A stretch of DNA of 64,000 nucleotides from Candidatus Dormibacteria bacterium (GCA_049521435.1 JBEKOU010000003.1:12688-76687), one strand, 5' to 3'; shown: positions 18,340-20,862, numbered from the stretch's first letter. Program-made: numbers and translations. Notes: generated by a model from the sequence alone, not told the origin.

Positions 18340-19362
18340 TCAGCGGCGGCGCAGGCTGCTGTCGGTGAGCTCCGGCGGGGCCCAGCCGGCGTCAGCGGGG
18401 TTGAGGTTGGTCCCCGGCGGCACGATCTCGTCGATGCGGTCGAGGGTGGCCTCGTCGAGGGTCACCTCGGCAGCGCCGAGCTGGCTCTCCAGGTGCTCCA
18501 TGGTGCGGGGTCCGATGATCGCCGCGGTCACCGCCGGGTGGCGGATGACGAAGGCGAGGGCGAGGTGGATGAGGCTGATGCCCGCCTCGCCGGCGAGCTT
18601 GGTGAGTCCTTCGACGGCGTCGAGCTTGCGCTGGTTGACCGGAAGGGTCAGGTCGTAGCGCTGGGGCAGCCGGGTGGCTCGCATGCTCGTCGGCGCCGCT
18701 CCTCGGTGGTAGGCGCCGGAGAGGAACCCACCGGCGAGCGGGCTCCAGGGGATGACCCCCATCCCGTACTTCTTGCAGACGGGCAGCACCTCGGCCTCGA
18801 CCCCGCGGACCAGCAGCGAGTACGGCGGCTGCTCACAGACGAAGCGCTCCCGACCGCGGCGCTCGGCGACCCACTGCGCCTCGACGATCTGCGACGCGGG
18901 AAAGGTGGAGCTGCCGAAGGCGCGGATCTTGCCGGCACGCTCCAGGTCGGTGAGCGCACCAAGGGTCTCGTCGATATCGCAGCTCGGGTCCGGCCGATGG
19001 ATCTGGTAGAGGTCGATCCAGTCGGTCTGGAGGCGGCGCAGGCTCGCCTCGCACTCGCGGATGATCCAGCGCCGTGAGTTGCCCTGGGCGTTGGGGTCGT
19101 CGCCCATCTGGGCGTGCACCTTGGTGGCCAGCACCACCTGGTCCCGCCGTCCCTCGGCGAGAGCCTTGCCGACGATCTGCTCGGACTCCCCCTGCGAGTA
19201 GACGTCGGCGGTGTCGATGAAGTTGATCCCCGCATCGAGGGCGCGATGGATGATGCGGATCGAGTCGTCGTGGTCCGGGTTACCCCAGGCGCCGAACATC
19301 ATGGCGCCGAGGCAGAGCGGGCTGACCTGAATCCCAGTGCGGCCGAGAGTGCGTTGCTGCAT
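18340..19362 (-). CDS. aldo/keto reductase
   Basis: [42 protein letters not shown], 340 aa. Confidence 0.95.
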
Positions 19363-19477
19363 GCCAAAGACGATACGCGCCCGGTACTCTGCGCCGACCA
19401 GGCCCGGTCACCGTGAGAGGCTGCCAGCGGGGCAGGTCGTCGAGTGGGGCTTGCGCAGGCGCGAGATGCAATCGCGC

Positions 19478-19629
19478 CGAGCACGAGCAGCCGACGCCAA
19501 AGGCGTCGGACTGCGGTCCCCCGAGACGATGTGCCCCACCGGCAGCCCGCTCTTGCGAAAAGCTCGAGCACGAGGCGCGGACAGCAGAGCTGTCCGACGC
19601 CGGTCCCCCCGAGATGATGGGCCCCGCCG
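19478..19629. repeat. two tandem about 65-nt units (87-nt period), each a hairpin plus a conserved C-rich tail
   Basis: Unit A 19478-19542: CGAGCACGAG-cag-CCGACGCC-aaa-GGCGTCGG-actgc-GGTCCCCCGAGACGATGTGCCCCACCGG. Unit B 19565-19629: CGAGCACGAG-gcg-CGGACAGC-aga-GCTGTCCG-acgcc-GGTCCCCCCGAGATGATGGGCCCCGCCG. Confidence 0.6.
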
Positions 19630-19656
19630 ACACCCCGCCCTCGCGGTGACCCCCGA

Positions 19657-20862
19657 CTACCCGAAAGCGTCCTCGCCGGTGATGGCCTTCCCCAGGATCA
19701 GGGTGTGGACCTCCTCGGTCCCCTCGTAGGTGAGCACCGCCTCAAGGTTTGCCATGTGGCGGGCGACCGGGTAGTCGAGGGTGAGCCCGTTGGCACCCAG
19801 GATGGTTCGCGCCGCGCGGGCGATCTCGATGGCGGTCCGGGTGTTTGCCCGCTTGGCGAGCGACACCTGGACGGTGTGGACGCGGCCGGCGTCCTTCAGG
19901 GTGCCGAGCCGGTGGGCCACCAGCCGTCCCTGAACCAGCCGGGTCGCCATCTCGGCGAGCTTGGCCTGGGTGAGCTGAAAGTGCGCGATCGGATGGCCGA
20001 AGGCCTCGCGGCTGCGGGCGTACTCGACGGCGGCCGTGAAACAGGCGCGAGCGGCGCCGAGCACACCCCAGGCGATGCCGAAGCGCGCCTCGTCGAGGCA
20101 GGCGAGCGCACCGCTCAGCCCGCGGGCCTCGGGCAGCATGGAGGCCTCCGGCACCCTCACCTCGTCGAGGATCAGCTCCGAGGTCACCGAGGCACGGAGG
20201 GAGAGCTTGCCCTCGATGTCGCGGGCCGAGAAGCCGGGCGTCCCCCGCTCCACCAGGAAGCCGCGGATGCCATCGTCGGTCTGCGCCCAGACCACGGCGA
20301 TGTCGGCGAGCGAGCCGTTGGTGATCCACATCTTGGTCCCGGAGAGAACCCAGTCCCCGCCCTCGCGGCGTGCGTGGGTGCGCATCGCCCCGGGATCGCT
20401 GCCCGCGTCGGGTTCGGTCAGCCCGAAGCAGCCGATCGCCCTCCCCGCCGCCATCTCCGGGAGCCACCGCTCGCGCTGCTCGGAGCTACCGAAGCGGTGG
20501 ATGGGGAACATCGCCAGCGATCCCTGCACCGAGACGAAGGAGCGCAGACCGCTGTCCCCGGCCTCCAGCTCCTCACAGGCCACCCCGTAGGCGACCGCCG
20601 AGGCGCCGGCGCAGCCGTACCCCTCGAGGTGCATGCCCAGCAGGCCCAGCTCGCCCAGCTCGGGGATCAGCTCGCGAGGGAAGCTCCCGGCCGCGAAGTG
20701 CTCACCGGCGTGGGGCAGGAAGCGCTCGCGCACAAAACCCCGCACCGTCAGCTGGACGAGCCGCTCCTCATCGCTCAAGAGCTGGTCGACGGCGTAGAGG
20801 TCGGCCGGGTCGAGGCGCGGCCGCGCCCCATCTCTAGCGCTGTCCGTCCCCATGCGCCCCAT
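19657..20862 (-). CDS. acyl-CoA dehydrogenase (glutaryl-CoA dehydrogenase-like)
   Basis: GCFGLTEPDAGSDPGAM, GTKMWITNG and YEGTEEVHTLILG. The ATG at 20862 or 20853 is preferred over the track start at 20979, whose N-terminus is Cys/Trp-rich junk. Confidence 0.9.
   Translation of the reverse strand: MGRMGTDSARDGARPRLDPADLYAVDQLLSDEERLVQLTVRGFVRERFLPHAGEHFAAGSFPRELIPELGELGLLGMHLEGYGCAGASAVAYGVACEELEAGDSGLRSFVSVQGSLAMFPIHRFGSSEQRERWLPEMAAGRAIGCFGLTEPDAGSDPGAMRTHARREGGDWVLSGTKMWITNGSLADIAVVWAQTDDGIRGFLVERGTPGFSARDIEGKLSLRASVTSELILDEVRVPEASMLPEARGLSGALACLDEARFGIAWGVLGAARACFTAAVEYARSREAFGHPIAHFQLTQAKLAEMATRLVQGRLVAHRLGTLKDAGRVHTVQVSLAKRANTRTAIEIARAARTILGANGLTLDYPVARHMANLEAVLTYEGTEEVHTLILGKAITGEDAFG

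Follow-up and report, generated by a model that had tools for sequence, protein, structure and literature searches.

Several families of small bacterial repeats offer the closest comparisons for the DNA considered here, a 294-nt spacer at positions 19363-19656 of a 64,000-nt stretch from a Candidatus Dormibacteria bacterium (GCA_049521435.1, JBEKOU010000003.1:12688-76687; we call the whole stretch the window, and positions without a contig name refer to it). The spacer separates an acyl-CoA dehydrogenase gene (ACAD) from an aldo/keto reductase gene (AKR) and contains hairpins that we assign to a dispersed palindromic element. MIRU (mycobacterial interspersed repetitive units), credited to Supply et al. 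in 1997, are reportedly direct repeats of 46-101 bp that lie within operons in a fixed orientation and whose small open reading frames (ORFs) overlap the flanking stop and start codons, implying translational coupling. The ERIC (IRU) sequences of Enterobacteriaceae are imperfect palindromes of ∼127 bp in transcribed extragenic regions, and their RNA fold can alter mRNA stability (PMC10969869). REP/BIME and REPIN-RAYT sequences are GC-rich extragenic palindromes that follow stop codons, are absent from promoters, and are built on a 20-40-bp hairpin unit tagged at one end by GTAG or CGTC; the associated RAYT gene encodes a Y1 (IS200/IS605-like) transposase and usually has the repeats on its flanks (PMC3733652). 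The Rickettsia palindromic elements (RPE; Ogata et al. 2000), as far as the summaries in PMC10969869 and PMC3733652 describe them, are palindromic repeats of ∼100-150 bp that encode no transposase and occur both between genes and in frame inside unrelated housekeeping genes, which thereby gain an extra peptide. Di Nocera et al. note that genes of replication and repair are frequent sites of intragenic REPs.

We consider it likely that the ACAD-AKR spacer carries copies of a lineage-specific, non-coding, imperfect-palindromic repeat of ∼135 nt that is REP/ERIC/RPE/MIRU-like and probably mobile. The family looks like a so far undescribed member of the known class of small dispersed palindromic repeats, notable for its branched, strongly covarying fold, and its behavior is that of repeats regarded as selfish or semi-domesticated.

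RESULTS

Repeat copies in the spacer and across the genus

A first-pass annotation of the window described two tandem units of ∼65 nt in this spacer. Its individual observations are borne out, and its interpretation is only partly supported. The box CGAGCACGAG occurs twice (19478, 19565), and both perfect 8-bp hairpins are present (CCGACGCC/GGCGTCGG at 19491-19498/19502-19509 in unit A and CGGACAGC/GCTGTCCG at 19578-19585/19589-19596 in unit B); the differences between them keep pairing. The C-run tails recur every 87/88 nt, with 76% identity over 45 nt and 83% over 40 nt, and a third hairpin, GCGCGA-7-TCGCGC, is present at 19459-19477. The spacer measures 294 nt, and Pfam domains confirm its ACAD and AKR neighbors. 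The units themselves must be redrawn. A 30-nt inverted repeat (I1; 19419-19448 with 19518-19547), detected by a repeat finder and absent from that annotation, joins the third hairpin and unit A into one imperfect palindrome of ∼130 nt. Judged from the sequence, the spacer thus holds one complete and one truncated copy of a dispersed, hairpin-forming repeat of ∼135 nt.

BLAST of the region against the organism's own 2.65-Mb, 62-contig assembly gave a dozen strong matches on seven contigs, and unit B matched 8 other loci at 91-98% identity (blastn). Reading the copies revealed a shared order of parts: a 5' arm; CTTGCGCAGG; hairpin P2a with the loop GNTGCAA; CCGAGCACGAG; hairpin P3 with a bulged A; GGT; and a complementary 3' arm. 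The strand on which P2a precedes P3 is taken as the + orientation of the element. Ten full copies (alignment A1) were used to build a covariance model, R1, and BLAST and R1 together identified 10 near-identical copies (type I) and ∼14 diverged copies (type II) in the own genome, ∼24 in all. Type II has the same core and architecture; its outer stem is different and has the symmetric internal loop AGCGAAG on both strands. Some loci are mosaics, with extra 5' halves at C1:229812 and C32:614 and extra 3' arms at C1:605356 (C numbers denote contigs); the focal locus is another. R1 matches the complete focal copy at C3:32105-32235 (window 19418-19548) with 119 bits and the truncated copy partially at C3:32239-32291 (model positions 34-101). 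Searches with BLAST and with a covariance model thus return a dispersed family, with many further copies and homologs.

The family is largely confined to one lineage. R1 matches occur in 14 of the 15 genomes of the genus, at 5-21 per genome; matches in four other genera of the family are weak, and the sister family, with 16 genomes searched, gave none. Among named genomes, the ACAD protein has its closest relatives in Candidatus Dormibacterota metagenome-assembled genomes (MAGs), three of which contain R1 matches. When a degenerate core pattern was run against 185,579 species genomes, it hit mainly peatland Dormibacterota MAGs (SPRUCE; Stordalen fen, bog, and palsa; “Candidatus Changshengia sp. 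bog_854”), and the other matches were scattered singletons such as chance would give. No member of Dormibacterota, a phylum common worldwide in soil and peat, has been cultured, and MAGs are the only source of knowledge about it. These three lines of evidence place the lineage in Candidatus Dormibacterota and replace the actinobacterial frame of the first-pass annotation, and the likeness to 6C small RNAs (sRNAs) that it had raised does not hold either: cmscan of window positions 19000-20000 against Rfam, 6C included, matched neither 6C nor any other family convincingly at E ≤ 10 and gave only spurious hits (VA RNA, E 0.37).

G014, the congener with zero R1 matches genome-wide, has palindromic sequence unrelated to the element in at least two orthologous spacers, carA-carB and the counterpart of C32:614.

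Fold and covariation

The element is predicted to form an outer stem of ∼30 bp that closes a three-way junction with the two hairpins P2a and P3. Symmetric and rich in purines, the internal loop of the outer stem reads CGAAG/CGAAG in type I and AGCGAAG/AGCGAAG in type II; the P2a loop is GNUGCAA, and P3 carries the bulged A. RNAalifold, given plain MAFFT alignments to which no structure had been fitted, returned the same three-way junction for both types, with 51 pairs in type I, 17 of them with double changes, and 46 pairs in type II, 37 of them with double changes. In the 31 type II copies, 95.2% of cells are in standard pairs versus 79.5% in column shuffles, with none of 500 shuffles equaling the observed value; the copies are related, so that the cells are not independent. 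Double-change pairs (37/46) likewise exceed the 19.5 ± 2 seen in shuffles, none of which reached the observed number (0/500). When the 3' partners were slid by 1-3 columns, pairing in type II fell to 37-55%, and the covariation score of 0.425 compares with ≤0.09 in these slid controls. Even the short junction helix covaries, reading TTGC..CAC in 21 copies and TTTC..AAC in 9. The folding energy of window positions 19416-19550 is −92 kcal/mol on the + strand and −94 on the − strand, versus approximately −60 ± 4 for dinucleotide shuffles (z of approximately −8), well outside the range of chance.

The two hairpins of the focal spacer turn out to be two discrete P3 alleles. Among 39 type I copies, ∼24 are of the CGGACAGC type and ∼9 of the CCGACGCC type; a compensated CGGACGGC variant also exists, and another genus has a CGAACTCC allele. 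Since both alleles recur across the family, units A and B differ because family members were juxtaposed or recombined, not because they coevolved locally. The earlier argument, which read three local compensatory changes as evidence of selection on structure, therefore stands in one part only: covariation across the family does show selection or homogenization on structure, but the three changes did not arise at this locus. Homogenization is an alternative to selection because all helices are local inverted repeats, and arm-to-arm repair of palindromic DNA could maintain complementarity without selection on RNA.

Turnover between relatives

The ACAD-AKR spacer differs widely among relatives (G numbers). 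It is empty in G004, where ∼85 nt separate the matches of the two genes; G005 retains a fused 5'-tip/3'-arm remnant; G009 has one element; G003 and G013 have mosaics with P3 allele B; and G008 has one element interrupted by a 38-nt G-run/C-run insert. Six genomes carry an additional ∼2.1 kb between the ACAD and AKR genes; in G007 (C73:7571-9601, loci L079/L064), the sole annotated genome of the six, this DNA contains a gene for a 676-aa polytopic membrane protein, not a transposase; that gene is absent from the own genome, which has two repeat copies at its position.

The G008 insert, GCCGGGGTTCCCCGCGTGGCCTGCCACGGGGGGTGGGAT (G008:C33, locus L062), is built of a C-run between two G-runs and breaks the junction box of the element. 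It has the look of another, smaller family of repeats lying within the first.

A composite query made of the flanks of all 24 copies was compared with six congeners, and junctions were located by flank-anchored pairwise alignment. Many own-genome copies are missing in close relatives. The copy at C10:12542 occurs in the own genome only, and that at C1:255073 is shared with G012 and missing from G007, G005, and G002. Several “empty” sites keep a solo 3' arm (dnaE in G005 and G002; carAB in G007, G002, and G005). Presence/absence polymorphism at orthologous sites in close relatives is thus demonstrated. Gain, loss, and recombination of copies are the behavior of a repeat and not of a conserved RNA gene, and the idea of an sRNA gene gives way to repeat DNA in view of this polymorphism, the mosaics, the solo arms, and the in-frame genic copies described below. 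Insertion into pre-existing terminator palindromes, considered as a source of the variable outer stems, was rejected: the empty sites of relatives lack outer-stem sequences.

Placement relative to genes

Gene positions were called with a crude codon-score caller trained on the own genome, which agrees with Pfam where checked. The nearest stop codon is mostly 2-60 nt from an intergenic copy. Among the 21 intergenic copies in the own genome, none lies between divergent genes, where 20% would be expected by spacer number (P 0.008) and 29% by spacer length (P 0.0008). Of ∼80 copies in all genomes, 36 sit between genes antisense to the element (<E<), 15 between genes in the sense orientation (>E>), 12 between convergent genes (>E<), and 1 between divergent genes (<E>), although these classes are not phylogenetically independent counts. 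The tandem contexts of the own genome show the same bias, with 13 antisense and 3 sense copies (P 0.02). Like BIMEs, the copies are extragenic and follow genes, are kept out of promoter regions, and form mosaics.

Thirteen type II matches within ORFs represent three orthologous sites. At site A, the ORF encodes a DnaE-type polymerase with PHP and DNA_pol3_alpha domains (own genome C1:67477-71223; locus L196, element at 1501-1638). The element, with an extra 3' arm, is inserted in frame after residue ∼129, in a proline-rich stretch of the PHP domain; seven species have an intact ORF, length differences between species preserve the frame, and G005 and G002 have only a solo 3' arm. At site B, the element is the linker of a single ORF that joins CarA (CPSase_sm_chain and GATase) to CarB (own genome C6:104859-109466, locus L190); in G007, G002, and G005 the linker is a solo 3' arm, and the fusion appears to be general in the genus. 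Site C lies in a DUF2520 (Rossmann-like) protein gene upstream of panB (own genome C8:78691-79815, locus L193), whose C-terminal extension of ∼90 aa reads through the element. This arrangement is found in four species, with frame and tail shared with G012, G009, and G015, and the element is not present there in G002 and G005. Sites B and C read another frame of the element than site A, so that no peptide is conserved. In type I, stop triplets number 0.87 per element versus 2.23 in dinucleotide shuffles, and 86% versus 68% of frames are open; over the same six frames, type II shows no such stop-codon poverty.

At about one-third of the sites within operons, the whole spacer forms one ORF from NTGA to NTGA. 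We defined a strict relay ORF as one whose start overlaps the upstream TGA (ATGA, GTGA, or TTGA) and whose own TGA overlaps the downstream start. In the own genome, 4 of 13 element-bearing tandem spacers contain one, whereas among 359 element-free spacers 120-420 nt long 6 do (Fisher P 1.7e-4); a fifth element-bearing spacer extends the downstream gene in frame at its N terminus. Relatives have relay ORFs in 12 of 31 spacers, with the element sense in 8 and antisense in 4, which brings the combined count to 16 of 44. Such spacers would maintain translational coupling between the genes that they separate. At C1:605356, the own genome reads ATGA-[214 nt]-ATGA where the empty site of G014 is a single ATGA stop/start overlap, a pattern expected both of a 4-bp target duplication and of selection to restore coupling. 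A relay ORF is lacking in the focal ACAD-AKR spacer: ACAD ends in TAG, and all frames are closed ahead of the AKR start.

A relay ORF of the strict ATGA...ATGA form also occurs in the purS-purQ spacer of the own genome (C3:227465-227617; 151 nt, −98 kcal/mol). This spacer contains GGCGCCGAG twice, a sequence reminiscent of the P2a/junction motif and unmatched by R1, and its repeat may be a distant relative or a different repeat family.

Anatomy of the focal spacer

Both flanking genes are on the minus strand. ACAD (19657-20862; PF02771, PF02770, PF00441) is the upstream neighbor of the spacer, and AKR (18340-19362; PF00248, E 6e-85) is the downstream neighbor. The elements in the spacer are on the + strand. 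The complete type I copy spans 19419-19547, as delimited by inverted repeat I1, the R1 match, and the predicted fold. Its outer-stem 5' arm, GGCTGCCAGCGGGGCAGGTCGTCGAGTGGGG (19419-19449), holds the CGA(A)G internal-loop motif and pairs with the 3' arm, GGTCCCCCGAGACGATGTGCCCCACCGGCAGCC (19515-19547), in the inverted repeat, the RNAalifold structure, and the fold. Between the arms, RNAalifold places the junction and first internal hairpin at 19450-19487, comprising CTTGCGCAGG, P2a, and the box GAGCACGAG. P2a, which is the third hairpin of the first-pass annotation, pairs GGCGCGA (19458-19464) with TCGCGCC (19472-19478) around the loop GATGCAA, and TGC (19452-19454) pairs with GCA (19481-19483) as the short junction helix. 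The P3 hairpin, formerly the hairpin of unit A, carries allele A at 19487-19514 and reads GCAG-CCGACGCC-AAA-GGCGTCGG-A(bulge)-CTGC.

A linker, CGCTCTTGCGAAAAGCT (19548-19564), follows, which keeps a CTTGCG remnant and has no P2a hairpin, as seen from the sequence and from direct repeats D1 and D2. The second copy (19565-19636) is truncated at its 5' end; it consists of the box CGAGCACGAG, P3 allele B (19574-19601; GGCG-CGGACAGC-AGA-GCTGTCCG-A-CGCC), and a 3' arm (19602-19636) and lacks the 5' arm and P2a. Both copies are enclosed by an outermost stem, recovered as inverted repeat I6 and in folds of the whole spacer, in which GGTCACCGTGAG (19406-19417) pairs with CTCGCGGTGACC (19640-19651). Five nucleotides separate this stem from the ACAD stop codon (TAG, 19657-19659), and the stem is also present around the single orthologous element of G008.

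Directly 5' of the 5' arm, several copies and orthologs share the motif CACCGTGAGAGG (window 19406-19420), with variants GGTACGAGGG and CCGTGAAGG, as at C3:2700-2715 and C6:60100-60115 of the own genome. In the focal spacer, CACCGTGAGAGG pairs with CCCTCGCGGTGACC as the outermost stem.

DISCUSSION

On the reading that we favor, the element is a probably mobile palindromic repeat. It multiplies and is lost within the genus, and it recombines into mosaics and solo arms. It persists only where it is harmless: copies directly follow stop codons and separate co-transcribed genes, and the scarcity of stop codons in the element lets it sit in frame in parts of proteins that tolerate it. It would be transcribed passively within the flanking mRNAs, and its very stable fold may influence the stability or processing of mRNA 3' ends. 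Since the focal spacer has no relay ORF, its likeliest local role is none, or at most that of an mRNA hairpin.

Each of the described families shares some of these traits. Like RPE, the element is palindromic, has no transposase, and resides in frame in housekeeping genes with the ORF intact, here including one for a DnaE-type polymerase; unlike RPE, with which it has no sequence similarity, it belongs to another phylum, is mostly intergenic, forms a GC-rich three-way junction instead of a simple hairpin, and has no conserved element-encoded peptide. With MIRU it shares intra-operon sites, small ORFs that overlap the stop and start codons of neighbors, and tandem partial copies, but it is a palindromic three-way junction with relay ORFs in both orientations and, at the focal locus, none. 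ERIC resembles it in being an imperfect palindrome whose copy number varies between relatives and which is occasionally intragenic; the two have no sequence similarity, ERIC has conserved terminal inverted repeats, and descriptions of ERIC include no branched junction whose internal hairpins covary. The GC-rich post-stop palindromes, promoter avoidance, mosaic clusters, and inverted dimers folding as long hairpins recall REP/BIME, whereas the element is much longer than a REP (∼135 nt), has a conserved internal core, and is accompanied by no RAYT gene. Membership among the CGTC-tagged REPs was rejected, as the arms (e.g., GGGGCACGTCGTCGAAGGGGGG) contain CGTC but are not self-complementary 8-9-bp hairpin units. 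[quoted passage not shown] They differ in that here the search gave no parent insertion sequence (IS) whose ends match, the terminal sequences vary, and no consistent target-site duplication was seen, NTGA occurring at operon junctions only, where it may be selected. The 6C sRNA (RF01066) offers C-rich runs and a GC-rich, Gram-positive-like genome and is otherwise unlike in cmscan outcome at E ≤ 10, architecture, copy number, and lineage.

Several observations weigh against a probably mobile, non-coding repeat. The first group concerns mobility. The Y1/RAYT transposase (PF01797) is absent from the own genome and from 14 of 15 congeners, while control genomes were correctly detected. An IS110 DEDD transposase and TnpB occur in some congeners and do not track the element: the own genome, with ∼24 copies, has neither, and G014, with none, has three IS110 genes. 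BLAST of the arms within the assembly returned small elements only, with no parent IS or longer element with matching ends, a result to be read with the caution that IS copies may be under-represented in MAG assemblies. Outer-stem tips vary in sequence between copies, unlike typical MITE terminal inverted repeats, and there is no convincing target-site duplication outside NTGA junctions: copies between convergent genes have no flanking direct repeats, and those at operon junctions show NTGA...NTGA, which selection for stop/start overlap (translational coupling) could produce in imitation of a target-site duplication. The placement data, in turn, depend on gene positions from the crude codon-score caller. 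The second group concerns the fold. On the strand with P2a before P3, G-U pairs exceed A-C mismatches by ∼30:3 in type I (alignment A1) and 33:16 in type II (alignment A3), and across genera the stems vary around a constant junction architecture, with the loop sequences and the bulged A kept. The constant loops and the G-U excess hint at selection on a single-stranded fold, which purely selfish DNA does not need.

A more novel reading is that the element is a mobile structured module. The three-way junction, with its GNUGCAA and AGUCAG loops, GCAG..CGAG junction, bulged A, and GA-rich loops, would then be a recognition fold for a propagation or processing machinery that acts on one strand (RNA or single-stranded DNA) and is independent of RAYT, IS110, and TnpB, and the element would also have evolved to be “translation-transparent.” We regard this version as rather unlikely.

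Another explanation is a multicopy family of functional structured RNAs expressed from the + strand, whether trans-acting sRNAs or protein-bound cis modules of mRNAs; the function would reside in the three-way junction with its conserved loops, and dispersal would be a secondary matter. All five helices, the short junction helix included, show very strong covariation; the loops GNUGCAA and AGUCAG, the junction GCAG..CGAG, and the bulged A are kept while the stems change wholly, even in distant Dormibacterota copies; and the symmetric GA-rich (purine-rich) internal loops fall on the same strand, with P2a before P3, as the excess of G-U over A-C. The G-U and A-C counts, however, are not independent events, and arm-to-arm repair can hold the arms of a palindrome complementary with no help from RNA selection. 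Rfam gives no match at E ≤ 10. A scan of the locus for sigma-70 promoters and intrinsic terminators found none, and the stems have no adjoining U-tracts and so are not a canonical terminator. Copies are mostly antisense to their neighbors (36 versus 15) with no sign of a promoter of their own, and gain and loss between close relatives, truncation, tandem half-duplication, and in-frame copies in proteins are atypical for RNA genes. We thus judge a functional RNA family to be unlikely.

The element might instead be a DNA site for a host protein, acting as a cruciform or as folded single-stranded DNA, either a BIME-like site for nucleoid proteins, gyrase, or IHF or an attC-like recombination site. 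Stems that are conserved in structure and not in sequence, together with asymmetry between strands, are attC-like, AGCGAAG or CGAAG stands on both arms as a direct and not an inverted repeat, and the extragenic, post-stop placement is that of BIMEs. Yet the copies are scattered over many contigs, with no array beside an integrase and no cassette arrangement; no partner protein was identified; GC skew in the own contigs was too weak and noisy to give a usable replication-strand signal; and in-frame genic copies and relay ORFs are not expected of binding sites. This makes a binding or recombination site very unlikely. A recent local tandem duplication with chance complementarity, the null explanation of the first-pass annotation, is right about the 87/88-nt direct repeat, which is real and reflects partial duplication or juxtaposition at the locus, but dozens of homologous copies in the own genome and relatives and the existence of both P3 alleles elsewhere already refute it, and its probability is negligible.

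A dispersed, probably mobile repeat therefore remains our preferred explanation. The focal locus alone is ordinary, two repeat copies in a spacer, and the family as a whole is moderately interesting. The repeat accounts for odd long structured spacers, an apparent carA-carB fusion, low-complexity inserts in DnaE-type polymerases, and C-terminal extensions, which would otherwise be misannotated as novel RNAs or domains, and for some MAG contig breaks. If the idea of a translation-transparent module were true, an element with few stop codons and relay ORFs in either orientation would colonize operon junctions, and even essential genes, free of cost. One family joins the in-frame residence of RPE, the relay ORFs of MIRU, and the stable extragenic hairpins of ERIC/REP, with no recognizable transposase, and is a useful comparative case of how small repeats spread and how genomes tolerate them.

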